Assembly (NCBI GenBank): GCA_041689615.1
Contig: JBDNFW010000039.1
Span: forward strand, 104,665-168,664
Direction of reading: 5' to 3'
Source: Gammaproteobacteria bacterium
Lineage (GTDB): Bacteria > Pseudomonadota > Gammaproteobacteria > Eutrophobiales > Eutrophobiaceae
Length of the DNA stretch: 64,000 nt
Shown here: positions 7,996 to 21,120 of the stretch, in pieces
How positions within the stretch are numbered: the stretch's first letter is position 1
How the letters are laid out: each line of letters starts with the position of its first letter
Made by a program: the position numbers and the translations under genes
The notes under the pieces: model-generated
The model's input: only the letters and a program-made list of their open reading frames with translations
The model's database searches: none
What the model was told of the DNA's origin: nothing

Positions 7996-8951
7996 TAGCT
8001 TTGTCTTTCCTTTGCAACAGGCATTACCAAACTAGTCGCTAGTATTTGAATGACTAACTGTTCAAAAGATAGTCCTGCTTGTTTAGCTGCCATCGGAACT
8101 AAACTATGACTGGTCATACCCGGAACGGTATTAACTTCAATTAACCACGGTTTTTTTGCTTTATCGATCATTAAATCAACTCGACTCCAGCCACTGACGC
8201 CTAACAACTTGCATGCTTGTAAAGCTAGTGCACCCAGTCTTCGTTCAACATCCTCATCAAGACCGCAGGGACAAATATATTTTGTATCATCATCTTCATA
8301 CTTTGCCTGATAATCATAAAACTCACGTTTTGTCTCAAGCTTAATCATAGGCAATACGGTTTCACCTAAAATAGAAATAGTATATTCATCTCCTTCAATC
8401 CAACTTTCAGCCATCACTCGTTCATCAAATTGATTTGCCTGTTTCCAGGCTGTAACTAAATCCTCAGCTTGTTTTACTTTACTTGCACCGACGCTTGATC
8501 CCTCTCTAACCGGTTTAACCATGATTGGTAATTTCAATTGTTCTATAATCTGCTTCCAATCACTTGTTTTATTTAATTCAACAGCATCTGGCGTAGGCAA
8601 ATCGGAATCACGCCAAATTGCCTTACTGCGAACCTTGTCCATTGCCAATGCTGAACTTAAAACATCGCTGCCGGCATAAGGTAATCCAATCGTTTCTAAT
8701 GCACCTTGAATTGTCCCGTCTTCACCACCCCGACCATGTAATGCAATAAAGACTCGCTCGAAGTTATTGCTCATTAACTGATGAAATTCATTTTTATTAA
8801 AGTCAATCGCGTGCGCATCGATACCCGCATTACAGAGTGCGGCGTATACAGCCTTTCCACTTTCTAAAGAAATCGCGCGCTCAGCTGACTCTCCACCCAT
8901 TAAAACAGCAACCTTGCCAAAATCAGAAGCTTGATATTCAGGTACGTGCAC
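7995..8951 (-). CDS. ddlB: D-alanine--D-alanine ligase
   Basis: GGESAER, LHGRGGEDG, EGSSVG, EVNTVPGMT. Confidence 0.97.
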   Translation of the reverse strand: MHVPEYQASDFGKVAVLMGGESAERAISLESGKAVYAALCNAGIDAHAIDFNKNEFHQLMSNNFERVFIALHGRGGEDGTIQGALETIGLPYAGSDVLSSALAMDKVRSKAIWRDSDLPTPDAVELNKTSDWKQIIEQLKLPIMVKPVREGSSVGASKVKQAEDLVTAWKQANQFDERVMAESWIEGDEYTISILGETVLPMIKLETKREFYDYQAKYEDDDTKYICPCGLDEDVERRLGALALQACKLLGVSGWSRVDLMIDKAKKPWLIEVNTVPGMTSHSLVPMAAKQAGLSFEQLVIQILATSLVMPVAKERQS

Positions 8952-9919
8952 TATTGCTCGCTCCTTTTTTTGCCCATGATCCTGACTTCAGGAATTAATT
9001 TAACTGCACACTTTTCAAACACAGTTGATTGAACCAATTCAATTAAACTTTCTATATCCAAAGATGTTGCATTACCTGCATTAATAATAAAATTGGCATG
9101 TTTTTCAGAGACAATCGCACCACCAAGCTGCTTTCCTTTTAATCCGCATGATTCAATCAATCTTGCAGCATGATCGTTTTCCGGATTTCTGAATACTGAA
9201 CCACAACTATGCTGTCCTAATGGTTGTGCTTCTGCTCTTTCGCTTAACATTTGTTTTATATTTTTTTCAATTTCTTCTTTGTTTGAAATTTCTAATTGCA
9301 AAGTACAAGCAACAAACCATTCATCAGCAGCAAGCGAAACACTACGATAACCAATTTCAAATTGATCACTTGAATAGATTCTACGTTCGCCATTTCGATT
9401 TATTGTTTCCACCTGTTTTACGTATTGCCAAATTTCACCATCATAAGCACCGGCATTCATAGCTAGCGCTCCTCCAATCGAACCTGGAATAGAAGCTAAA
9501 AATTCAATGCCAGCTAAAGCATGTTTTGCAGCGAAGCGCGCTGCTTTAGCGCAAGTAACACCTGCGCCTATTTTCAATTCATTTTTACTAATACACTCGA
9601 GTTCATTAAGCACACCAATAACAGACACAACAACACCAGATAAACCGCCATCACGCACTAATAAATTGCTACCCAGTCCTACCCAGGTAACTGGCATGTC
9701 ATTTGGCACGCTAGACAAAAACTCAGACAAATCATCACTATCAGTAGGCACATAAAAATATTCTGCTTCACCGCCCGTTTTCCATGACGTATGACGCGAC
9801 ATAGGCTCCTGCTCTCGCAATTCACCTCGAAATAATGTTCTGTCTAAATCAATAGTCATACTGTTATTAAAAACCACCTGCATTTTTTGCATTTCATTTT
9901 CTATACTCAACAAAATCAC
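8951..9919 (-). CDS. murB: UDP-N-acetylenolpyruvoylglucosamine reductase (start uncertain: GTG 9919 or ATG 9892/9883/9859)
   Basis: GLGSNLL, IPGSIGGALAMNAGAY, GSVFRNP, SEKHANF. Confidence 0.96.
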   Translation of the reverse strand: MILLSIENEMQKMQVVFNNSMTIDLDRTLFRGELREQEPMSRHTSWKTGGEAEYFYVPTDSDDLSEFLSSVPNDMPVTWVGLGSNLLVRDGGLSGVVVSVIGVLNELECISKNELKIGAGVTCAKAARFAAKHALAGIEFLASIPGSIGGALAMNAGAYDGEIWQYVKQVETINRNGERRIYSSDQFEIGYRSVSLAADEWFVACTLQLEISNKEEIEKNIKQMLSERAEAQPLGQHSCGSVFRNPENDHAARLIESCGLKGKQLGGAIVSEKHANFIINAGNATSLDIESLIELVQSTVFEKCAVKLIPEVRIMGKKRSEQ

Positions 9920-10074
9920 ATACCCATGATGCTTGGAAATGCGATATTCAGAGTGCGTCTGTTTTTATTCAGGGCTAGGCACGACGATGCCGCATGGCCG
10001 ATCCCTGCAAAGAGGAGCAACGACGCCATGGATGAAAACGGACGTGCTATGGATGTCGTATTTTCAGGTATCAT
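9916..10074 (-). CDS. Putative 52-aa bridging ORF encoded by the hairpin insert (MIPENTTSIARPFSSMASLLLFAGIGHAASSCLALNKNRRTLNIAFPSIMGM)
   Basis: GGAGG (10085-10081) lies 6 nt before ATG 10074; frame is open across the insert; TGA 9918-9916 overlaps the murB GTG at 9919. Translation is not demonstrated. Confidence 0.45.
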   Translation of the reverse strand: MIPENTTSIARPFSSMASLLLFAGIGHAASSCLALNKNRRTLNIAFPSIMGM

Positions 10075-10080
10075 GGGTAT
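9920..10080 (+). mobile_element. 161-bp ERIC-like palindromic miniature element between murC and murB
   Basis: 56-nt arms 9920-9975 and 10025-10080 are inverted repeats (43 WC pairs, 11 G-U, 2 mismatches); ends ATACCC...GGGTAT resemble ERIC termini; no transposase. Confidence 0.75.
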
Positions 10081-10085
10081 CCTCC

Positions 10086-11498
10086 TCAATGCACTGAGCT
10101 TGAATAAAGTTGTTTTGACAAAGTACCAATATCACCTGCACCTAAAGTCAGTAATAAATCATTTTCTTCGAGCAAACTTGAAAGAACTTCTGGAACAGTT
10201 TCTTTATCTTCTACAAACACGGGTTCTACTAATCCCCGTAATCTTATCGCGCGACATAAAGATCGAGCATCTGCACCGAGAATAGGTTCTTCTCCTGCTG
10301 GATAAACATCAAGAATTAATAAACAATCAACATTTGAAAGCACCCGACTAAAATCTTCGAAGAGATCGCGTAATCGTGTAAACCGATGAGGTTGGTACAC
10401 CACAACCAAACGTCGATTAGGCCATCCGCCTTTAATCGCATCTAAGATTGCTTCTATCTCGGTAGGGTGATGTGCATAGTCATCAATTAACGTGACATTA
10501 AAATCGTTTACCTTAATATCACCTCGTACATGACATCGACGAGAGATGCCCTGAAAATGACTCAACGCTTTAATAATGTTTTCATCGCTAACACCTAACT
10601 CATGTGCCACAGCTATGGAGGCCAATGCATTTAATAAGTTGTGTTTGCCGGGAAGATTAAGCTCAACTTCTAACCAATCTTTTTTATCTTTATGCGAAAC
10701 TTTAAACCAGGTTTTTGTATTTTCCTGTTTTATCAATTCGGCATTATAATCCGCTTCAAAATCCAGACCGTAAGTAACAATCGGCTTGGTTACTTCTGGT
10801 AAGATTTTACGAACGCCTTCATCATCAATACACAAAACAGCAAGACCATAAAAAGGTAATTGATGTAAGAATTCAACAAAGTTATGACGTAAGTTTGCAA
10901 AATCACCGGCATAAGTATCGAGATGATCTGCATCAATATTTGTTATGACAGCGATGACAGGATAAAGATGTAAAAAAGATGCATCACTTTCATCTGCTTC
11001 TGCAACAATATATTTTCCTGTACCAAGACGTGCGTGAGATCCTGAACTATTTAATAATCCACCTATGACATAGGTGGGATCGAGTCCACCTTCCGCGAGT
11101 ACACTAGCAACTAAACTTGTTGTTGTTGTTTTCCCATGCGTGCCTGCTATAGCAATACCCTGACTGAAACGCATCAATTCGGCTAACATTTCTGCCCGAC
11201 GTACAACAGGTATCCTATTATTTCGCGCAGCACACACTTCTTCATTGCTTTCATCAATTGCACTTGTCACAACAACAACATCAGTATTAGCAATGTTTGC
11301 AGCAGCGTGACCGATTGTCACCTTAACACCTAACGACTCCAGTCTTTTTGTAATTCCACTTTCTTTAATATCGGAACCGGTCACTTCGTAACCAACGTTC
11401 TTAAGCACTTCTGCTATACCACCCATACCGGCACCACCTATACCGACAAAATGGATATGCTTTACTCGACCCATCGCATGTAATTGCATATCACGCAT
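10086..11498 (-). CDS. murC: UDP-N-acetylmuramate--L-alanine ligase
   Basis: HFVGIGGAGMGG, GTHGKTTT, EADESD, DDYAHHPTE; start placed at ATG 11498 after GGAGG, overlapping the murG stop. Confidence 0.98.
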   Translation of the reverse strand: MRDMQLHAMGRVKHIHFVGIGGAGMGGIAEVLKNVGYEVTGSDIKESGITKRLESLGVKVTIGHAAANIANTDVVVVTSAIDESNEEVCAARNNRIPVVRRAEMLAELMRFSQGIAIAGTHGKTTTTSLVASVLAEGGLDPTYVIGGLLNSSGSHARLGTGKYIVAEADESDASFLHLYPVIAVITNIDADHLDTYAGDFANLRHNFVEFLHQLPFYGLAVLCIDDEGVRKILPEVTKPIVTYGLDFEADYNAELIKQENTKTWFKVSHKDKKDWLEVELNLPGKHNLLNALASIAVAHELGVSDENIIKALSHFQGISRRCHVRGDIKVNDFNVTLIDDYAHHPTEIEAILDAIKGGWPNRRLVVVYQPHRFTRLRDLFEDFSRVLSNVDCLLILDVYPAGEEPILGADARSLCRAIRLRGLVEPVFVEDKETVPEVLSSLLEENDLLLTLGAGDIGTLSKQLYSSSVH

Positions 11499-12576
11499 GA
11501 ATCGCCTCCATACATAATTTTGCAACATCATCTGTCGCAGTTGGTTTTGCAAGTGAACGTGCCTTAACTGCCATTTTTATTAATTGCTCAGGTGCTTGAC
11601 ATAACATTAATAAAAGTTCTTTTAATTTCTTAGTATTCAATTGAACTTCCTGAATTAGAATTGCGGCATCTTCATTTGCTAGATACTTTGCGTTTTCAGT
11701 TTGGTGGTCATCAACCGCATACGGAAATGGAATAAGTATTGAAGCTATACCTGTTGCTGCTAACTCAGCGATTGTTAAGGCACCTGCTCGACAAATAACA
11801 ATATCAGCCCAGGCATAAACCTCTGCCATATCATTGATAAATGGCAGCACTTCCACATTGACGTTGTATTCTTTATAAGCCGCTTCGGTATCAGAAAGAT
11901 GCCGTTCACCGCATTGGTGTTTAATTTCAAATTGATATTCATTGCCTAAAGCAGATAATGTTTGCGGTATCACTTCATTTAATTTCTTTGCACCAAGACT
12001 GCCACCAAGAACCAGTACTTTTAATAAATTTGAATCTCGATTTGCATATCGTTGGTTGGGTTCGGGTAAATTTACAATATCGTTGCGAACAGGATTTCCT
12101 GTGATAGTTAATTTTTTTGATTCTTTAAATGCGCCTGGGAAAGCCGCCATAATAGAAACAGCGAACGGCGCCAATAATCGATTGGTTAAACCTGCTATCG
12201 CATTTTGCTCATGAATAAGTAAAGGTATACGCATCAACCATGCAGCTATACCACCCGGCCCACTGGCAAAACCACCCATACCAAGTACGACGACCGGACG
12301 AACTTTAACCATAATCATTAATGCTTGAACCAAGGCAATTGCAAGCATGAAAGGCGTAAACAATAAACGTAAAATACCATTGCCTCTTACTCCAGCAACA
12401 TTGATTTTCAATAATGGATAACCATGATTTGGAACAACTCTGGCTTCCATTCCCTTGCTTGTTCCTAACCAGAACAATTGAAAACCTTTTTCTTTCAGAT
12501 GATCGGCAACAGCCAATGCTGGATAAACATGTCCGCCTGTACCACCTGCCATGATTAATATATTTTTATCACGCAT
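11491..12576 (-). CDS. murG: Undecaprenyl-PP-MurNAc-pentapeptide GlcNAc transferase
   Basis: MAGGTGGHVYP, HEQNA, GNPVR, GGSLGA, RAGALT; start placed at ATG 12576. Confidence 0.98.
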   Translation of the reverse strand: MRDKNILIMAGGTGGHVYPALAVADHLKEKGFQLFWLGTSKGMEARVVPNHGYPLLKINVAGVRGNGILRLLFTPFMLAIALVQALMIMVKVRPVVVLGMGGFASGPGGIAAWLMRIPLLIHEQNAIAGLTNRLLAPFAVSIMAAFPGAFKESKKLTITGNPVRNDIVNLPEPNQRYANRDSNLLKVLVLGGSLGAKKLNEVIPQTLSALGNEYQFEIKHQCGERHLSDTEAAYKEYNVNVEVLPFINDMAEVYAWADIVICRAGALTIAELAATGIASILIPFPYAVDDHQTENAKYLANEDAAILIQEVQLNTKKLKELLLMLCQAPEQLIKMAVKARSLAKPTATDDVAKLCMEAIHA

Positions 12577-13771
12577 AAATTGGCACCACTTTCGGTATAG
12601 CAAGACGCGTATCTTGTCGATTCTCATATTCAATACGTAACAAAATACCTAACAACATACAGTAAACAATTAAACTGTTACCGCCATAACTCATCAAAGG
12701 TAACGTCAGCCCTTTAGTTGGAAGCACGCCCATATTCACACCAATATTGATGTAAGCCTGTATTCCAATTATCAATCCGATACCATAAGCAAAATATGCA
12801 GCAAAATATTTTTCTACTCGTTCCGCAATATGGCCAATAACAAAGGCACGCCAAACAATAAATGAATATAAAAGTATCATTGTAATACTGCCGAAAAGAC
12901 CTAACTCTTCAGCAAGTACCGAGAAAACAAAATCAGTATGTGCTTCCGGTAAGTAAAATAATTTTTGTACGCTACTACCCAGACCGACACCAAACCAATC
13001 ACCACGACCAAAAGCAATCAAGGCTTGTGTCAATTGAAAACCACTATCATAAGGATCTTTCCACGGGTCAACAAAACTCATCAGACGTTGCATTCGATAA
13101 GGAGAAAGAATAGCCAAAGTAACCAATGCGCTCATAGCCACTGAACCCCAGGCACAAAAGCGGCTTAAAGGAACTCCCGCCATAAATAACATACCTAATG
13201 CGGTAGCAAACAAGACAACGCTTGCACCAAAATCAGGTTCGAGTAATAACAAACCAGAGATTAATGTCAAAACACCTATTGGCCTGATAAAACCTTTAAA
13301 GTCTGTTTGCACAGTTTCACCATGACGAACCAGATAACTGGCAAGATAAGCAATAATGCATAACTTTACCGGCTCTGATGCCTGCAATGAAAATGGCCCT
13401 AATTGTATCCAACGCATACTGCCATTCACTTCTTTACCAACGCCCGGGATTAGAATTAACACTAACAGAAGAATGGCTGCTATTAATAATGTCATACTGC
13501 CCATTTCCCATATGCGCATGGGAATTTTTAAAATAACTAACGCAAGAGACAAACCTATCGCCGCAGAAAAACCCTGCCGCCAGAAATAATGTAACGGGTC
13601 ATCAAATTCTCTGGCAGAAATTGAAATAGAAGCCGATGTCACCATAACCAGACCAATAAAAATGATGAGTAAAGAAATACCCATAAGCCAAAGGTCATAA
13701 CCCACAATCAACTTATTCTTAATATGATAATGTGAAGCTAAAGTTGCTTGTTGTTTATATCGTGCAGACAT
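12569..13771 (-). CDS. ftsW: SEDS peptidoglycan polymerase FtsW
   Basis: Polytopic membrane protein; QASEPVK, EPDFG, LPEAHTDF, PTKGLTLPLMSYGG. Confidence 0.97.
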   Translation of the reverse strand: MSARYKQQATLASHYHIKNKLIVGYDLWLMGISLLIIFIGLVMVTSASISISAREFDDPLHYFWRQGFSAAIGLSLALVILKIPMRIWEMGSMTLLIAAILLLVLILIPGVGKEVNGSMRWIQLGPFSLQASEPVKLCIIAYLASYLVRHGETVQTDFKGFIRPIGVLTLISGLLLLEPDFGASVVLFATALGMLFMAGVPLSRFCAWGSVAMSALVTLAILSPYRMQRLMSFVDPWKDPYDSGFQLTQALIAFGRGDWFGVGLGSSVQKLFYLPEAHTDFVFSVLAEELGLFGSITMILLYSFIVWRAFVIGHIAERVEKYFAAYFAYGIGLIIGIQAYINIGVNMGVLPTKGLTLPLMSYGGNSLIVYCMLLGILLRIEYENRQDTRLAIPKVVPIYA

Positions 13772-15162
13772 CAACAAGCCTCCAATGCGTTCACCGCAGA
13801 AACAAACACATCACCGCGATGCTGGTAATTTTTATACATATCGAGACTGGCGCAAGCAGGTGCAAGTAACACTATATCGCCTGACTCTGCTTGTTGATTA
13901 GCGCGACTAACTGCTTCGTCCATATCAACAACAAACTCATACGGAACTGCCGTTCCAAGAACATCGGCTAACTTATTAGCATCAACTCCAAGCAACAAAA
14001 CTTTCTTTACATGTTGTTTGGCGACAGAAGCTAAACTGGATAAATCAGCACCTTTACTATCACCACCAGCAATCAAAATAATATTGCCCGTGTCACACAA
14101 CCCTTTTATTGATGCGATAGAAGCACCGACATTGGTCGCTTTGGAATCGTTATACCAGCTAACATTATTTATTATTTTAACTAACTGACATCGGTGGTCT
14201 AAACCTTTAAAACTTTTCAATGTTTCAACCATCACACTGACTGGAACATTAACTGAGCTTGCCAGTGCCATTGCAGCCAAAGCATTAGCGACATTATGTT
14301 CGCCTTTAATACCAAGTTCTTTTTGACTGATAATTTTTTTGTCACCCTGACACAAGAAAACTGCACCATCTTCTTTAATAACACCAAAACCATTTCCTGC
14401 CGGTTTAGATAGAGAAAAACTAATGCTTTGTCTTGAATCATCATTCATCGCATTAACGACTTCATCATCTAGATTGATGACCATCAAACCTTGCCCTGAA
14501 TAAATTTTATTCTTGGCGTTAATATAATCATTAAGACTGCTATAACGATCCATATGATCAGGAGAAACATTCAATACCACGCTTGCATGTGCGTTCAGAG
14601 AAAAAGTTGTTTCCAATTGAAAGCTGGACAACTCTAAAACATATACATCAGGAGTGGGTTCGTCTAATAACTCAAGTGCGGGGGTACCCAGATTTCCACC
14701 GACACAGGTTTTCAACCCAGCATTGCGAGTCATCTCTGCGACTAATGTCGTCACTGTACTCTTTCCGTTAGAACCTGAGATCGCAATGATCGGCGCTTTT
14801 GCTTGCTGACAAAATAATTCAATATCGCCGACTACAGGAATACCTTGTTTTATAGCCTGCTTCACACTTTCGTTTTCAAGTGAAATTCCTGGACTTAATA
14901 CGATTTGATCTGATGACAACAAAACTTTCGCACTAATCTCACCAAGATAAACAGGAACTGATTCAAACCCGTTCTTTAATGCCGCTAATTCCGGTGGTTC
15001 ATCTCGACTATCTGTAACAGCAATATTCAGGCCTTGTTTACTTAAGTATCGGACACATGAAAGCCCGGTCTTACCTAGACCAACAATAACCATATCGAAA
15101 TGTAAGTTAGCTTCGTTCATCGTTACCTTTTTCGTCATCATCTTTTCGGCAATACAAAACAA
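13771..15162 (-). CDS. murD: UDP-MurNAc-L-Ala--D-Glu ligase (start may be ATG 15141 or 15120)
   Basis: GLGKTG, GSNGKSTV, ELSSFQL, DHMDRY, NDSKATN. Confidence 0.97.
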   Translation of the reverse strand: MFCIAEKMMTKKVTMNEANLHFDMVIVGLGKTGLSCVRYLSKQGLNIAVTDSRDEPPELAALKNGFESVPVYLGEISAKVLLSSDQIVLSPGISLENESVKQAIKQGIPVVGDIELFCQQAKAPIIAISGSNGKSTVTTLVAEMTRNAGLKTCVGGNLGTPALELLDEPTPDVYVLELSSFQLETTFSLNAHASVVLNVSPDHMDRYSSLNDYINAKNKIYSGQGLMVINLDDEVVNAMNDDSRQSISFSLSKPAGNGFGVIKEDGAVFLCQGDKKIISQKELGIKGEHNVANALAAMALASSVNVPVSVMVETLKSFKGLDHRCQLVKIINNVSWYNDSKATNVGASIASIKGLCDTGNIILIAGGDSKGADLSSLASVAKQHVKKVLLLGVDANKLADVLGTAVPYEFVVDMDEAVSRANQQAESGDIVLLAPACASLDMYKNYQHRGDVFVSAVNALEAC

Positions 15163-15172
15163 GTAATCTTCC

Positions 15173-16255
15173 TCAACGTATCTTTAGACTGGCAAGACCA
15201 ATCAAGACTAGAATCACCGTCACAATCCAGAACCGAACAATAACTCGGGGTTCCGGCCAACCTTTAAGTTCATAGTGATGATGTAACGGTGCCATTTTAA
15301 AAATTCTTTTTCCGGTTAACTTATAGGAGCCGACTTGTAAGATGACTGAAACTGTTTCCATTACAAAAACACCGCTCATAATAAAAAAAGCTAACTCTTG
15401 TCTAACTACAACAGCAATAACACCTAATGCAGCACCGAGTGCAAGAGCTCCGATGTCTCCCATAAAAACCTGTGCCGGATAAGTATTAAACCAAAGAAAA
15501 CCTAAACCTGCTCCGGCAATGGCCCCACAAAAAATAGCCACTTCACCAACACCTGGCACATAGGGAATACCAAGGTATTCTGCAAAACGAACATGGCCTG
15601 TTGCATAAGCAAAAATTGCCAATGCGCCAGCAATTAATACCGTGGGCAAAATAGCCAAACCATCAAGACCATCTGTTAAATTAACCGCATTACTTGAACC
15701 AACAATAACGAAGTAAGTCAACACGACATACAACCAACCCAAATCGAAAACAAACGCTTTAACAAATGGAATAATTAATTGTGTTTCAACTGGAAGCGTT
15801 GCCGTTTGATATAAATAAACTGCAGCACCTAATCCAACAATGGATTGCGCAGCATATTTATATTTTGCACTTAACCCTTTTGGATTGTTGTTAATGACTT
15901 TTTTATAATCATCAATTAATCCAATAATGCCAAACAACAACGTAACTATAGTGACGACTAAAACATAACGGTTGCTAATATCGGCCCAACATAAAGTACT
16001 AAACATAATTGAAATTAGAATTAACAACCCACCCATAGTAGGGGTACCTGATTTCTCAAGGTGCGTTAGTGGACCATCATCTCTGATACTTTGACCGATT
16101 TGATTACTTGTTAAACGTCGTATCAAATAAGGTCCAAAAAGAAATGAAATAAACAAAGAGGTCAACACTCCCAATATTATTCTTAACGTTAAATAACTGA
16201 ATACATTGAAACCACTATCAAACTGAGCAAGATATTCTGTAAGCCAAAGCAACAT
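15173..16255 (-). CDS. mraY: Phospho-MurNAc-pentapeptide transferase
   Basis: [34 protein letters not shown]. Confidence 0.98.
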
Positions 16256-17614
16256 TTATTCTTGTGCCTCCGTCAATGCATTAACTACGCGTTCCATCTG
16301 CATAGCACGCGAACCTTTAACCAACACGACGGAATCTTCATCAAGAAGATTCATCAAAGCTTCATTTAACTCATCATGAGATTCAAAATAAAAAGAATTA
16401 GAACCAAAACCTTGCAAAGTATTAATGCTTAATTTACCTAGCGTAAATAATTTATCGACACCTAACTCCTTGGCCAATTTGCCTGCATCTTTATGAAGCT
16501 GCGCTGCTGTTTCACCTAACTCACCCATGTCTCCAAGAACGAGATAACGATTTCCTTTATATTGACTTAATACTTTTAATGCTGCGTCAAGTGAGGTTGG
16601 GTTTGCATTATAGGTATCATCAATAATGCTAGCGCCTTGCTTCCCGGGTTTTATTTGTAGTCGACCTTTAACAGGTAACATGTTTTCAAGCCCATCTTTT
16701 ATCGTTGCCAAGGGCACGTCAAGATTTAAACAACAGGCAGTTGCAGCAAGTGCATTCATAACATTGTGTTCACCAGGAAGAGGTAATAAAATTTCAATAG
16801 AATTTTGAGCACAACACAATTCAAACTGAATCGAATTACGCCCAGTTAAAATCTTAATGTTTCTTGCAATAACATCTGCCGTATCATTTTTAATTCCGAA
16901 ACTAAACTGATTCAAATGCTCACAAGATTTTCGCCAGAAATCCGCATACTCATCATCGGCATTTATTATTGCTGTACCGGAAGACTGTAAACCTGAATAT
17001 ATTTCTGCTTTTGCTTTAGCAACGCCTTCAATGCTGCCAAAGCCTTCAAGATGAGCAGGCGCGCATTGTGTAATTACGGCAATGTTTGGTCTTGCAATTG
17101 CACTTAACCATTCAATTTCGCCAGGATGATTCGCGCCCATTTCAATAACGGCATATTGATGTTTCTTATCAAGACCAAATAAAGTTAATGGCACACCGAT
17201 GTCATTATTAAGATTGCCAGAGGTTGCGTGCACTTCAGAAATCCTGGATAAAATACTTGTTACCATTTCTTTTACAGTGGTCTTGCCATTGCTACCTGTA
17301 ATCGCCACTAATGGAATTGATAATTCATCACGCCATATTCTGGCAAGCAGCCCCATAGCCTTGCGTGTATTTTCAACTTGCAACAAAGGTTTTGTATGAC
17401 TCACTTCCCGTTCGAGCATTAAAGACGATGCACCATTATTTTCAGCTACTGACACATAATCATGACCATCATAGTTTTCGCCCATTAACGCAATAAATAA
17501 ATTCCCATCTTTAATAGTTCGACTATCTGTACTACAACCGGAAAAAATAATATCTTCACCAATAAAATTGGCATTAATTGCTGCAGCTGCTTTTGAAAGT
17601 GACATACTAATCAT
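16256..17614 (-). CDS. murF: UDP-MurNAc-tripeptide--D-Ala-D-Ala ligase
   Basis: ITGSNGKTTVK, EMGANHPGEI, DDTYNANP, LVKGSR. Confidence 0.98.
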   Translation of the reverse strand: MISMSLSKAAAAINANFIGEDIIFSGCSTDSRTIKDGNLFIALMGENYDGHDYVSVAENNGASSLMLEREVSHTKPLLQVENTRKAMGLLARIWRDELSIPLVAITGSNGKTTVKEMVTSILSRISEVHATSGNLNNDIGVPLTLFGLDKKHQYAVIEMGANHPGEIEWLSAIARPNIAVITQCAPAHLEGFGSIEGVAKAKAEIYSGLQSSGTAIINADDEYADFWRKSCEHLNQFSFGIKNDTADVIARNIKILTGRNSIQFELCCAQNSIEILLPLPGEHNVMNALAATACCLNLDVPLATIKDGLENMLPVKGRLQIKPGKQGASIIDDTYNANPTSLDAALKVLSQYKGNRYLVLGDMGELGETAAQLHKDAGKLAKELGVDKLFTLGKLSINTLQGFGSNSFYFESHDELNEALMNLLDEDSVVLVKGSRAMQMERVVNALTEAQE

Positions 17615-19143
17615 GAGTCACCTTCCGTCAGACGTCTTGCTAATTCACGATCGCTAAATGGCAATAATGTCGAACCAATTTGTTGCGTAGTTTCATGACC
17701 TTTACCGGCAATCAAAATCACATCATCTTTATTTGCATTCAGAAAAGTATTGATAATCGCATCAGAACGATCATATTTAATTATTACTCGATATTTTTCT
17801 TTAATACCTTGCAGAATATTTTCAATAATTTTTTCTTCTGCTTCAGTTCGAGGATTATCATTAGTTAAAACAATTTGATCAGACAATGATTCAGCAATAG
17901 CACCCATTTCTGCACGTTTACCAATATCACGATCTCCGCCGCAACCAAACACACAATATAATTTACCTGCACAGTAAGGACGTAATGAGCTTAAAGCTTT
18001 TTCAAGCGCATCCGGTGTATGCGCATAATCTACGACGAGTAATGGTTTAGGATTATTTATTGACTGGCAAGAAAAATATTCCATGCGTCCAGGAACACCT
18101 GAAAATTCAGATAATGCTTTCGCAACTTTTTCAGCCGACAAACCAGAGACACATAGCGAAGAAAAAGCAGCGAGAATATTTTCAATATTAAATGTGCCTA
18201 ATAAATTAGTTTGTATCGTTACTTGATCCCCAGAATGATTCCAGGGACTTTGTATCGTCAGCTTTGTTTTAAGCTGATCTTTTTCAATTTTTTCACAACA
18301 AACAAATGAAACATTTTTTCTTTTTATCTTTGCTTGAGTAGCTTTCGTTGAATATGCAATTACCTCTAAATTCTCCGGCAATAAATCGATAAGCTCAACA
18401 CCATAAGCATCATCAACATTAACAATGGCATGTTTAAGCCCAAAAGATTTAAACAACTGAAATTTCGCATCAGCATAGTCTTTAAACGTTTTATGATAAT
18501 CAAGATGATCTCGACTTAGATTAGTAAATACGCCAATATCAAATTCAGTACCAGCAACTCTACCTTGATCGAGTGCGTGAGAAGAAACTTCCATCACGAC
18601 AGAATCAACCTTGCCTATCCAACTTGAAAACAGAGAATGCAACTTAACTGGATCAGGCGTCGTTGTATTAGCCGATTCTACTTTTCCAAATGGACCATTG
18701 CCTATCGTTCCAATAACAGCAGATTGCTTACCAAGCATATACAAGACTTGCGCAACCATGTACGAAACTGTTGTCTTGCCATTGGTTCCGGTAACACCAA
18801 TGACTTGCATCTGTTTTGAAGGTTCGTCATAAAATCGACTGATGATGATGCCAGCTTGCTTACGTAAGTTAGCTACTTTTACAATTGGAACTAACATTGA
18901 TTCCAGATTAACTAATTCATCTTCGTCAATCAGAATGGCAATGGCACCAGCACGAATTGCATCATCAATATAATCAACACCGTTAACCACTGTTCCGCGA
19001 TAAGCCATAAACAAATCTCCCGGCTTAACTGTCCTGCTATCAATAGCAACACCCGTCACATTAATTGACGCATCAACATTAGCCGGTTCACTTAAAATTT
19101 CAGATAGTGATTTTGAAAAATTCATTTTTTCAGCCGTCATCAT
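17611..19143 (-). CDS. murE: UDP-MurNAc-dipeptide--meso-DAP ligase
   Basis: GTNGKTT, EVSSH, DYAHTPD, DNPR (meso-DAP specificity), AGKGHE. Confidence 0.98.
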   Translation of the reverse strand: MMTAEKMNFSKSLSEILSEPANVDASINVTGVAIDSRTVKPGDLFMAYRGTVVNGVDYIDDAIRAGAIAILIDEDELVNLESMLVPIVKVANLRKQAGIIISRFYDEPSKQMQVIGVTGTNGKTTVSYMVAQVLYMLGKQSAVIGTIGNGPFGKVESANTTTPDPVKLHSLFSSWIGKVDSVVMEVSSHALDQGRVAGTEFDIGVFTNLSRDHLDYHKTFKDYADAKFQLFKSFGLKHAIVNVDDAYGVELIDLLPENLEVIAYSTKATQAKIKRKNVSFVCCEKIEKDQLKTKLTIQSPWNHSGDQVTIQTNLLGTFNIENILAAFSSLCVSGLSAEKVAKALSEFSGVPGRMEYFSCQSINNPKPLLVVDYAHTPDALEKALSSLRPYCAGKLYCVFGCGGDRDIGKRAEMGAIAESLSDQIVLTNDNPRTEAEEKIIENILQGIKEKYRVIIKYDRSDAIINTFLNANKDDVILIAGKGHETTQQIGSTLLPFSDRELARRLTEGDS

Positions 19144-19394
19144 CCTGGAAATCTCGGTTGAATTCGTTTGAAGGTGCGTTTTTCAAGCTTAGTTGCGCCG
19201 ACTAAAAAGCCGCACATAGCCGTGCTATGTAAGGTTTTTGCTGTCAAGCAAATGAGTTTGAAAAATGTGCCTTTAAATGAATAGACAAATGCATCTAATG
19301 AATATGCTCCTAACACCGAATGACGCCCTAGTGTCATAGACACAGTAATAATTTTGAGTCGGTCAACTGAGAATTTCAGGATCATATTAGTCAT
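19140..19394 (-). CDS. Putative 84-aa bridging ORF reading through the 237-bp insert from the inferred ancestral murE start
   Basis: ATG 19394 overlaps the ftsI stop (ATGACTAA); stop TGA overlaps murE ATG 19143 (ATGA). No known protein family recognised; translation not demonstrated. Confidence 0.4.
   Translation of the reverse strand: MTNMILKFSVDRLKIITVSMTLGRHSVLGAYSLDAFVYSFKGTFFKLICLTAKTLHSTAMCGFLVGATKLEKRTFKRIQPRFPG
19144..19380 (+). mobile_element. 237-bp MITE-like element with 18-bp imperfect terminal inverted repeats, 5-bp flanking direct repeat ATCAT and a 121-nt internal hairpin
   Basis: TIRs CCTGGAAATCTCGGTTGA / TCAACTGAGAATTTCAGG; ATCAT at 19139-19143 and 19381-19385; internal arms 19162-19196 / 19248-19282 around ACATAGC-CGT-GCTATGT. 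Confidence 0.8.
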
Positions 19395-21120
19395 ACCCTA
19401 GTACTTGTTCGGGTTTATGACTGTTCGCCATGATTGGGCTGGTAATCGCCGGCAAATCATCAGGTGGGATATTTAAAATTCGAAATGCGCCTTCCATTAC
19501 TCGTGAAAAAACAGGCGCTGCAACAACACCGCCATAATGACTATCCCCTTTCGGCTCATCAATAAGTATCACCATTGCAAAACGTGGTTGACTTGCAGGT
19601 GCAATTCCGGCGAATACGGAAAGATAACGATCATCAGAATAGCCACCGCGAATATATTTATACACTGTGCCAGTCTTGCCTATAACCCGATAGCCTCTTA
19701 TAGCAGCACGCTTACCTGTACCTTCATCAGACACCACCGTCTCCATCATTTTTCTGACTTGTCTGGCAATGTTTTCCGGTAACACGCGCTTACCTGAAAC
19801 AGTGCCATTAACTTTGATAAATGAAATGGGTACCATCACTCCACCATTTGCCAAAACAGAATATGCCTGCGCAAGTTGTAAAGGTGTAACAGATAGACCG
19901 TAACCAAATGACATGGTTGCCATTTCAACATCCGACCAGGAATTATACGGACTTAAAACACCCGAAGACTCACCAGGAAAAGCGCTACCCGTAGATTGAC
20001 CGAATCCGAATCTGGATAAGGCATCCCAGAATTGTTCCGGTTCAAGTGATAGCGCAATTTTGCTCGCGCCAACATTACTCGACTTCGTAATTACAGTTGA
20101 AACATCAAGTTTGCCATAGTTACGCATATCCCGAATCGTGTGATCACCCACCTTATAAAATCCTGGTGAGGTATCTATTGCTGTATGCGGTTTATAAAGA
20201 CCCGACTCCAATCCTGCTGCCACAGTAAACGGTTTCATTGTTGAACCGGGTTCAAATACATCTGTAATAGCACGGTTGCGATAAAAAAGACTATTTAAGG
20301 TTTCGCGATTGTTTGGGTTGTAAGAGGGTTGACCAACCATCGCCATGACTTCACCGGTTCTAATATCAAGCATCACCAAAGAACCACTTTTCGCCCGGTG
20401 ATATTTAACCGCTGCTGCTAATTCGCGATAAGCTAAATACTGAACACGTCGATCAATACTTAACCTGAGTTCTTTTCCAGGTTCGGAAGACTCAATACTT
20501 TCTATGTTTTCAACAATTCGGTTTAAACGATCTTTCAATACGCGTTTCTTGCCGTTTTTACCACTGAGCCAATCGTTATAAGCCAGTTCTAAACCTTCCT
20601 GACCTTGATCATCAACATTAGTAAAACCGATGACATGAGAAGCAACTTCAGCAGCCGGATAATAACGTTTATATTCACGTTGTGTTGAAACCCCTCTTAT
20701 TCCTAGCTCCTGTACTTTCTTGACTATGTCCGGCGTTGCGTGACGTTTTAAATAAATAAAATCTCGGCTAATACGAGCACGCAAAGTTTCATGAAGATTT
20801 TCGACCGTCATACCCAGAGCTTCCGCCAACTCAGGAAAACGCCCGACATCTTCAAATACTTTTCGAGGCGTCACCCATATTGAATCAACCGGTGTACTCA
20901 TTGCCAGTTGTTCTCCGTTTCGATCAACAATGACTCCACGATGCGAAGGTATATCAACCACACGAATAGAACGGGCATCACCATGCTCTTTGAGAAAATC
21001 ATTATTTAATAATTGTAAATAAACAGCACGCGATGAAAGCACTGCCATGCCACAAAGAAAAAAACTTAACACCAGCCAACGGCGTACGGGATATTGTGTT
21101 TGTACTGTGCGTAATTTCAT
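19387..21120 (-). CDS. ftsI: Peptidoglycan transpeptidase FtsI (PBP3)
   Basis: EPGSTMK (SxxK), SSNVG (SxN), KTGT; N-terminal TM. Confidence 0.98.
   Translation of the reverse strand: MKLRTVQTQYPVRRWLVLSFFLCGMAVLSSRAVYLQLLNNDFLKEHGDARSIRVVDIPSHRGVIVDRNGEQLAMSTPVDSIWVTPRKVFEDVGRFPELAEALGMTVENLHETLRARISRDFIYLKRHATPDIVKKVQELGIRGVSTQREYKRYYPAAEVASHVIGFTNVDDQGQEGLELAYNDWLSGKNGKKRVLKDRLNRIVENIESIESSEPGKELRLSIDRRVQYLAYRELAAAVKYHRAKSGSLVMLDIRTGEVMAMVGQPSYNPNNRETLNSLFYRNRAITDVFEPGSTMKPFTVAAGLESGLYKPHTAIDTSPGFYKVGDHTIRDMRNYGKLDVSTVITKSSNVGASKIALSLEPEQFWDALSRFGFGQSTGSAFPGESSGVLSPYNSWSDVEMATMSFGYGLSVTPLQLAQAYSVLANGGVMVPISFIKVNGTVSGKRVLPENIARQVRKMMETVVSDEGTGKRAAIRGYRVIGKTGTVYKYIRGGYSDDRYLSVFAGIAPASQPRFAMVILIDEPKGDSHYGGVVAAPVFSRVMEGAFRILNIPPDDLPAITSPIMANSHKPEQVLGYD

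Follow-up and report, generated by a model that had tools for sequence, protein, structure and literature searches.

Two palindromic inserts, E1 between murC and murB and E2 between ftsI and murE, interrupt the essential dcw operon within a 64-kb window of a gammaproteobacterial genome (contig JBDNFW010000039.1 of assembly GCA_041689615.1; the window is the whole 64,000-nucleotide stretch that was analysed, and all coordinates below are given on its minus strand). By their sequence features, both are MITEs (miniature inverted-repeat transposable elements), and they probably persist in this operon because ribosomes translate straight through them. The initial annotation had described two unrelated palindromic inserts, each spanned by a stop-free bridging frame (52 and 84 codons) that ends in a TGA on the next start (GTGA and ATGA), and this description proved correct to the base. 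That translation through the inserts has been selected for is well supported by the comparison of copies across the genus; the bridging frames would themselves be translated and would deliver ribosomes to murB and murE.

E1-like and E2-like DNA was each found in 16 of the 23 genomes of the genus. Profile searches of the DNA analysed gave 74 full-length copies of E1 (157–184 nt) and 79 copies of E2, of which 69 were full length and mostly 240–243 nt; counts for E2 use 67 copies, after removal of two duplicates of copies from the genome of the window. The window copy of E2 covered positions 2–242 of its nhmmer profile (E 1.6e-61). No similarity hits linked E1 to E2, indicating two unrelated families. 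Both have terminal inverted repeats, small size, many dispersed copies and no transposase gene, the features by which MITEs are recognised, and on these grounds they are non-autonomous mobile elements spread across one genus of uncultured Gammaproteobacteria known from metagenome-assembled genomes. In addition, many E2 copies were flanked by perfect 5-of-5 direct repeats (e.g. TTAAA, ATAAT, ATTAT and ATGAT; consensus WTRAW), and in this target repeat the T-R-A often formed the stop codon of the preceding gene. Target duplication and filled/empty site polymorphism were established for E2; E1 filled its dcw site only in the genome of the window, with no insert at murC/murB in any of the 22 congeners. 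The target duplication of E1 is possibly the TA within ATA...TAT. Using the terminal repeat pattern of E2, we searched the genome of the window for an autonomous insertion sequence, and the three places matched were all E2 copies. No Rfam covariance model matched window positions 9700–19700 at E ≤ 1.

To compare filled and empty sites, we used the ftsI/murE junction of the 21 genomes of the genus with both genes on one contig. The junction was tight in 17 of them (GAY-TGATGATGAC in 14, TAATGATGAC in two and TAGATGATG in one) and filled at the identical nucleotide in the other four, with inserts of 242 nt in the genome of the window, 242 nt in G006, 122 nt in G016 and 275 nt in G031. The G031 allele consisted of the TAATGATGAC empty site, which is empty in G017, plus the element and a second ATGAT, giving a clean 5-bp target duplication. 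All four alleles were open, with lengths that are all 2 mod 3, and they have stayed open although 51–75 substitutions separate them and their lengths have changed, in frame, by 120 and 33 nt. A scan of metagenome contigs gave seven stretches, among them close copies, also open, of the G031-type allele (L244 and L248) and of the G016-type allele (L247). A loose-pattern scan of genome contigs gave 82 stretches, with E2 only in L165, L199 and L211; these look like the three alleles known from congeners.

The G016 allele lacked exactly the 120-nt inner hairpin module, and G031-type alleles carried an additional 33 nt, both changes being in frame; possibly the inner module is itself an element nested in E2. 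Three of the alleles (those of the window, G006 and G016) have an extra AT to the left of the duplication (TAAT[ATGAT]; window 19381–19389), which was seen in no empty site. On a local ftsI+murE tree each of these three genomes was sister to a genome with an empty site, and at least four changes were needed. As a history of these alleles, neither one gain followed by losses nor independent gains fits the shared AT dinucleotide. On a further metagenome contig, L249, which encodes no close MurE or FtsI, there were three weak partial matches to the E2 profile (E 8e-11 to 4e-7), and after one of them come AGGATGATGAC and a stretch that is open for 84 codons; the E2 family may extend past this genus.

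E2 copies were strongly biased toward gene junctions and toward one orientation. A same-strand ORF (open reading frame) started no more than 46 nt from the E2 3′ end in 58 of the 67 copies, and no more than 10 nt away in 47; an opposite-strand ORF abutted the 5′ end in only six. In 34 of the 67 copies there was also an upstream same-strand ORF ending between –40 and +8 of the 5′ end. Ten of the 51 ORFs listed downstream of E2 were scanned, and all ten proved to be real genes, with Pfam matches that start at positions 1–5 of the profile (congener loci L126, L068, L069, L071, L123, L077, L128, L064, L067 and L122). In these loci, E2 lies directly before secY (SecY), hisD (histidinol dehydrogenase), ribF (FAD synthetase/riboflavin kinase) and trkH (TrkH), before genes for a MoxR-type AAA ATPase (moxR), a 2-oxoacid dehydrogenase acyltransferase (E2 gene), an NAD-dependent epimerase and an HD phosphohydrolase, and before a glmS-like gene (glutamine amidotransferase plus SIS domain) and a SIS+CBS gene (kpsF/gutQ-like). 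Therefore, essential operons other than dcw have been colonised too. The orientation bias is strong although both terminal repeats carry the same outward GAGG. Within the genome of the window, six of the seven E2 copies were on the G-rich strand, where gene direction is not separable from replication direction. A host Shine–Dalgarno (SD) motif preceded the left end of E2 in 15 of the 67 copies, compared to 6.5% at random, and is not a general feature.

Across the E2 family, stop codons are avoided in a single frame. Frame 0 was stop-free from model position 37 to the 3′ end in 43 of the 67 copies, compared to 0/67 and 2/67 for frames 1 and 2. This difference was sharpest in the variable region (positions 37–105), where median pairwise identity is only 0.54: among 48 indel-free copies, frame 0 was stop-free in 46 and the others in one and two. 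Composition-matched shuffles gave an expectation of 0.167 (binomial p ~1e-30 or lower, ~1e-33), and after clustering at 80% identity 41 of 43 clusters were still open. Column entropy was 1.15, 1.26 and 1.25 bits at codon positions 1, 2 and 3; there is no relief at the third position, and hence no amino-acid constraint on the frame. Substitutions between the dcw copies of the window and G006 fell 21/17/13 on the three positions. Judged from sequence, stops that are avoided in one frame, with no bias by codon position, are what one expects of an ORF that needs to be translated and whose product is irrelevant. In the window copy, the two remaining forward frames contain eight and five stops. Furthermore, the spacing from the stop of the frame to the next start was –7 to +5 nt in 22 of the 26 open E2 copies with a downstream gene. 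Counted over the whole element, the dcw copies were open in 4/4 cases and the other copies in 12/64 (p 0.002; p 0.04 when two events are counted).

The element proper of E2 is 237 nt (79 codons), and because of this the left N-T-G of the target is in frame with the right T-R-A. As a result of this geometry, an ATGA or TGATG junction that receives the element has two successive stop/start overlaps in place of one. At ftsI/murE, the first ATG of the element lies 1 nt past the ftsI TAA, and counting from the in-frame ATG at 19394 extends bridging ORF 2 to 84 codons. More often, the left end of E2 carries stops in all three frames within its first 45 nt (43/67 copies), so that in the usual layout a stop is followed by a restart and a frame reaching the next start, and a single unbroken ORF is not the rule.

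We then compared the murC/murB junction with that of the congeners. There, the murC stop overlaps AAGGA or GAGGG, and a conserved TTGTTRAGT follows 6–9 nt on; murB starts at this TTG in most of the 22 congeners, which we take as the start because several species have no nearby ATG. When the 161 nt of E1 were removed, the distance from the murC stop to TTGTTG became 14 nt, the same as in the congeners; therefore, E1 landed between the SD and the start codon of murB. The right end of E1 is without an SD, and the former murB SD is now 167 nt upstream of the murB start. Counted from the in-frame TTG at 10089, bridging ORF 1 is 57 aa, and its stop lies 2 nt before the conserved murB TTG. The overlap with the murB start claimed in the initial annotation holds in part: GTGA is literally present, and GTG 9919 may not be the start that murB uses, given the conserved TTG. 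As a separate observation, the first ~25 nt of murB (TTGTTGAGTATAGAAAATGAAATG; window 9885–9913) had a conserved nucleotide sequence across most of the 22 congeners, while the MurB proteins are only 66–83% identical; this pattern may reflect an RNA-level constraint on the 5′ end of murB.

By its sequence contexts E1 is a general intergenic MITE: of 74 copies, 24 lay between co-directional genes, 5 between divergent and 1 between convergent genes, and 44 in other contexts. One copy (L108), a duplicate of a copy from the genome of the window, was set aside; of the other 73, 10 lay in tight co-directional junctions. Read along transcription, frame 0 was open in 8 of these 10, compared to 22 of the 126 orientation-frames of the other 63 copies (p 8e-5); counting copies open in at least one orientation, the comparison was 8/10 with 18/63 (p 0.003). 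These numbers are small, rest on crude ORF calls and include one orthologous pair. In several of the tight E1 copies, the ORF meets the next start in ATGA, GTGA or TAAATG. The comparison of intra-operon with other copies that the initial annotation had proposed thus came out in its favor, for E1 by these counts and for E2 by the 46/48 copies open in frame 0. The open frame is in part a family property and not special to the two dcw loci. In two E1 copies (C32:23661–23841 of the genome of the window, and L109), frame 0 passes in frame into the gene downstream, over more than 670 nt, and there the element may form an N-terminal extension of the host protein.

Both inserts are predicted to fold into stable hairpins. 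The outer arms of E2 are 23 nt and 83% complementary, with an inner palindrome of 35 nt, and its minimum free energy (MFE) was –65.9 kcal/mol (z –3.54), with none of 200 shuffles as stable. E1 has arms of 56 nt that are 77% complementary, the terminal 11 bp (ATACCCATGAT/ATCATGGGTAT) being perfectly paired; its MFE was –53.4 kcal/mol (z –2.17), and 3 of 200 shuffles folded equally well. The predicted E1 stem closes exactly at the ends of the element, leaving the SD unpaired on the 5′ side and GTGATTTTG unpaired on the 3′ side. For E2, the alignment of 34 copies supported 46 pairs in the terminal repeats and the long inner hairpin, with 95.3% of cells paired, and the hairpin covaries: compensatory changes occurred in 24 of the 46 pairs, compared to 9.2 in shuffles (0/500 had as many) and 5–7 in slid controls. 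In the terminal stem alone (columns 6–22 with 230–246), 11 of 14 pairs showed such changes. Helices 3–5 combined covariation with conserved G-U pairs, which on the other strand would be C-A; it is therefore the sense strand that folds in this way, either as RNA or as single-stranded DNA. The left repeat carries CCTC, complementary to the GAGG of the right repeat; in the folded state, this GAGG motif, which resembles a ribosome-binding site (RBS), and part of the start codon are paired. The tip of the inner hairpin of the window copy and the CGGCTTTTTA after it gave a weak sense-strand match to an intrinsic terminator (19231..19213); the T-run of the family consensus is poorer.

Taken together, these observations suggest the following course of events. 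E2 inserts on a WTRAW target, here the ATGAT of the murE start, with a 5-bp duplication. The left copy keeps the upstream stop and, if the target is NTGAN as it is here, supplies a start codon; the right copy supplies the stop of the new frame and keeps the downstream start, the two overlaps being joined by an open frame that is indifferent to sequence. At E1, the ATG of the element lies at the old spacing of 6 nt from the former murB SD, which would now serve it. A ribosome ending ftsI or murC would then stop 1 nt (for E2) or 11 nt (for E1) short of the element's ATG, melting the first arm, re-initiate at this ATG and unwind the hairpin during translation. It would terminate on the murE ATG (ATGA) or 2 nt before the murB TTG (GTGA) and re-initiate there, as in termination–reinitiation coupling. 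The same translation would shield 160–240 nt against Rho-dependent polarity. A further step, possible though doubtful, is that E2 is an evolved 'translation relay cassette' whose architecture is adapted to coupled junctions, including those of essential operons (ftsI/murE and the junctions before secY, hisD and ribF), and whose hairpin with its terminator-like tip could also make downstream expression strictly dependent on upstream translation. The features of such a cassette would be the WTRAW duplication, the three-frame stops and restart ATG at the left, the unconstrained frame of 79 codons and the strand-specific covarying hairpin. If so, the E2 hairpin would add a layer of coupling that hosts could exploit.

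Several observations weigh against translation straight through the inserts. In 38 of the 67 E2 copies, including 21 of the 34 junction copies, a stop stands at codon 11 (consensus TAA), and an ATG at codon 13 is present in only 25 of the 67; with codon-11 stops this common, an unbroken relay is not generally needed. None of the four dcw copies has this stop. A start codon at the 5′ end with an ORF reaching the 3′ end was found in only 5 of the 64 non-dcw copies of E2. The ATGs of E1 and E2 both lie within stable stems. The open E1 copies mostly belong to the ATACCCATGAT subfamily, so that subfamily and context are confounded, and the gene contexts of both families were taken from crude ORFs, read from stop to stop with a minimum of 80 codons, on copies that include orthologous loci and are not independent. 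The claim of the initial annotation that such inserts survive only when they keep the coupling chain intact was thus too strong: the codon-11 stop of the E2 junction copies is often followed by a restart ATG, and two of the ten tight E1 copies were closed.

Other counts that speak against the translated relay favor an explanation in which the operon simply tolerates the inserts, translation of murB and murE begins independently, from the SD-like right end or otherwise, and the open frames are inherited from an open consensus. Of the 67 E2 copies, 44 have GAGG, AAGG or GGAG among their last 16 nt, so the downstream genes might initiate by themselves; E2 openness from position 37 holds whatever the context, including 3 of the 6 copies without flanking genes; and frame 0 of E1 (ATA CCC ATG ...) is stop-free in 15/74 copies forward and 21/74 in reverse (20–28%) whatever the context, compared to 0–9/74 for the other frames. 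For the dcw copies alone, the simulated chance of staying stop-free was P 0.23–0.27 for the window copy against G006 and 0.10 against G031, and we discarded this simulation as proof of selection because values of 0.10–0.27 are too weak. However, an open consensus cannot persist unaided over a median identity of 54%, and the restriction of openness to one frame in the variable region calls for ongoing selection on translation. Moreover, the window copy of E2 has lost GAGG and reads GAGA, murB's old SD has been moved away with none at the right end of E1, and open frames are over-represented in the tight copies of E1; we regard mere tolerance as unlikely. It is quite unlikely that translation has been selected mainly against transcriptional polarity (Rho acting on 160–240 nt of naked RNA, or the terminator-like E2 tip) and not for ribosome hand-over. 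Stop avoidance that is frame-specific and indifferent to amino acids agrees with such protection, as do the terminator-like hairpin and T-run on the sense strand of the window copy, and copies closed at codon 11 that are open from codon 13 would still be protected. Yet the frames end regularly near the next start and the E2 stop lies inside the duplicated target, neither of which protection alone needs, and the terminator match is weak: it has three G-C pairs, and the region held 13 such sites where 7.6 were expected.

In the case of E1 alone, folding of the 161-nt hairpin could bring GAGGAGG beside the TTG and restore the 6-nt spacing, so that murB starts on a hairpin-bridged RBS and the ORF is irrelevant. 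The predicted stem, with SD and GTGATTTTG left unpaired, and the congener spacing obtained by removal of E1 are in line with this, and hairpin-bridged split ribosome-binding sites are known from gene 38 of phage T4. The T4 hairpins are of ~20 nt, compared to 161 in E1, and a bridged RBS leaves unexplained both the open frames of the tight E1 copies and the frame that ends on the next start; we consider it very improbable. Scarcely credible, in our judgment, is a dedicated role, with the inserts as regulators tying peptidoglycan synthesis to upstream translation or the bridging ORFs as functional small proteins. The position within the dcw operon, the conserved covarying structure of E2 and the filling of the same ftsI/murE site in four genomes could be read in this way. 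Against it, the inserts are absent from these sites in 17 of 21 (E2) and 22 of 22 (E1) congeners, and the same element precedes unrelated genes (secY, hisD, ribF, trkH and moxR); likewise, we saw no sign of the control point on peptidoglycan genes that the initial annotation had suggested. A small protein-coding gene was ruled out by the missing codon-position signal, in conservation as in substitutions. Furthermore, neither bridging peptide had a Pfam match below E 0.05 (the best was a chance-level prePAAR, E 0.055), and a protein search with the 81-aa E2 ORF found only four other predicted proteins (67–90 aa) among 5.8 billion.

If ribosomes do translate through E1 and E2, this would explain how selfish DNA can sit inside tightly packed essential operons without polar damage, by means of a frame that is merely translatable. 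The E2 family is an unusually clean comparative case of selection on 'being translated' without selection on the product, which is rarely demonstrable, and offers a natural, portable counterpart to synthetic bicistronic designs. It also serves as a warning for annotation, since gene callers ignore such ORFs, as the four related proteins among 5.8 billion indicate.

Small repeats with comparable habits are known. Mycobacterial interspersed repetitive units (MIRUs) were reportedly described at start codons by Supply et al. in 1997, and Rickettsia palindromic elements (RPEs) are said to have been described by Ogata et al. in 2000. Correia elements work via promoters, IHF and RNase III. For E1 and E2, MIRUs are the known precedent. 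In the available portions of PMC12548453 and PMC3184786, MIRUs insert at start codons, with an internal ORF coupled (–4 nt) to the gene and with expression little disturbed. They share with E1 and E2, according to the same portion of PMC12548453, the form of a small intra-operon repeat whose ORF ends overlap the flanking stop and start codons, which here read TAA-T-ATG ... ATGA at E2 and TGA-SD-ATG ... GTGA at E1. A MIRU-like position between co-directional genes, in their orientation, is seen for both window copies; in the E2 family, 58/67 copies have a same-strand gene start past the 3′ end and 34/67 a same-strand gene upstream as well, and in the E1 family only 24/74 copies are co-directional. 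By analogy the likeness would be one of working principle, and we claim no descent. As far as these partial descriptions go, MIRUs are mycobacterial, 40–100 bp and often tandem (variable number tandem repeats), whereas E1 and E2 are single copies of 160–240 bp with long terminal inverted repeats, and E2, unlike MIRUs, has a defined 5-bp duplication, a covarying inner hairpin and family-wide stop-avoidance statistics.

RPEs resemble E1 and E2 in being palindromic mobile repeats that stay translatable and hence survive in coding DNA, judging from excerpts of PMC10969869; in the same excerpts they lie in frame inside protein genes and carry a conserved peptide, whereas E1 and E2 lie between genes as separate ORFs without amino-acid conservation. 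Correia/CREE (NEMIS) and ERIC/IRU elements are MITEs co-transcribed with their neighbours, with hairpins acting at the RNA level (PMC2649163, in the part available), but a relay ORF or targeting of stop/start junctions does not figure in the portions of their descriptions that we compared (PMC2649163 and PMC10969869). The terms 'start codon', 'ribosome' and 'polycistronic' had no occurrence in the 2024 review of prokaryotic MITEs (PMC10969869), and a literature search joining MITE or MIRU with translational coupling in operons, supplements not covered, found no papers. Short leader ORFs and synthetic bicistronic designs, as outlined in the accessible part of PMC12548453, similarly rely on a short ORF whose only task is to carry a ribosome, with its helicase activity, to a start codon that overlaps the ORF's own stop; unlike these, the device here would ride a transposable element and be copied to many junctions. 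The relay principle is thus already known from mycobacterial MIRUs. What is new is a junction-specialised, structured MITE family of Gammaproteobacteria, defined by its target-site duplication, together with strong comparative evidence for a sequence-agnostic relay frame.

The coordinates of the inserts and of the flanking genes are collected in Table 1. The dcw genes run in the order rsmH-ftsL-ftsI-murE-murF-mraY-murD-ftsW-murG-murC-murB-ddl on the minus strand, and their junctions are mostly overlapping or abutting, with murC/murB and ftsI/murE as the exceptions. In an NCBIfam scan, all six products examined (FtsI, MurE, MurF, MurC, MurB and Ddl) matched their own models; the other gene names are positional.

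Table 1. Positions of the E1 and E2 inserts, their bridging ORFs and the adjoining dcw genes in the window.
Feature	Position	Strand	Remarks
ftsI (PBP3)	19387..21120	-	NCBIfam FtsI/PBP2 models, E 8e-169; stop TAA 19389-19387
E2 element	19144..19385	-	242 nt: left duplication copy ATGAT 19385-19381 plus element proper of 237 nt (19380-19144)
E2 left terminal inverted repeat CCTGAAATTCTCAGTTGA	19363..19380	-	contains CTC, partner of the right-repeat GAG(G)
E2 inner long hairpin	19162..19282	-	120-nt module, arms 19162-19196 and 19248-19282; tip followed by T-run
E2 right terminal inverted repeat TCAACCGAGATTTCCAGG	19144..19161	-	family consensus GAGG ~11 nt before next start; GAGA in this copy
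E2 right duplication copy ATGAT	19139..19143	-	
Bridging ORF 2	19140..19385	-	ATG 19385, 81 codons, TGA 19142-19140 overlapping murE ATG 19143-19141
murE	17611..19143	-	TIGR01085, E 7e-157; ATGATG start kept in congeners, inside right target-duplication copy
murC	10086..11552	-	TIGR01082, E 5e-165; stop TGA 10088-10086
Shine–Dalgarno-like GAGGAGG	10081..10087	-	overlaps murC stop, directly 5′ of E1; 6 nt ahead of E1 ATG
E1 element	9920..10080	-	161 nt, palindromic; terminal inverted repeat ATACCCATGATAC
Bridging ORF 1	9916..10074	-	ATG 10074-10072 in left arm, 52 codons, TGA 9918-9916 overlapping GTG 9919-9917
murB	8951..9919	-	NF010480, E 9e-113; longest ORF from GTG 9919; genus-conserved start TTG 9913-9911

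A Logan contig from run X1 covered positions 9500–19700 with 0 differences. This run is probably the source sample, so that the contig is an independent assembly of the same sample; the sole run containing the locus was a lake-water metagenome. The longest ORFs of murG (11491–12633) and murC (10086–11552) reach 65 and 62 nt into the genes upstream of them owing to upstream TTG codons, and the profile match of murC begins at residue 32; the true starts of murG and murC probably lie later than those of the longest ORFs.

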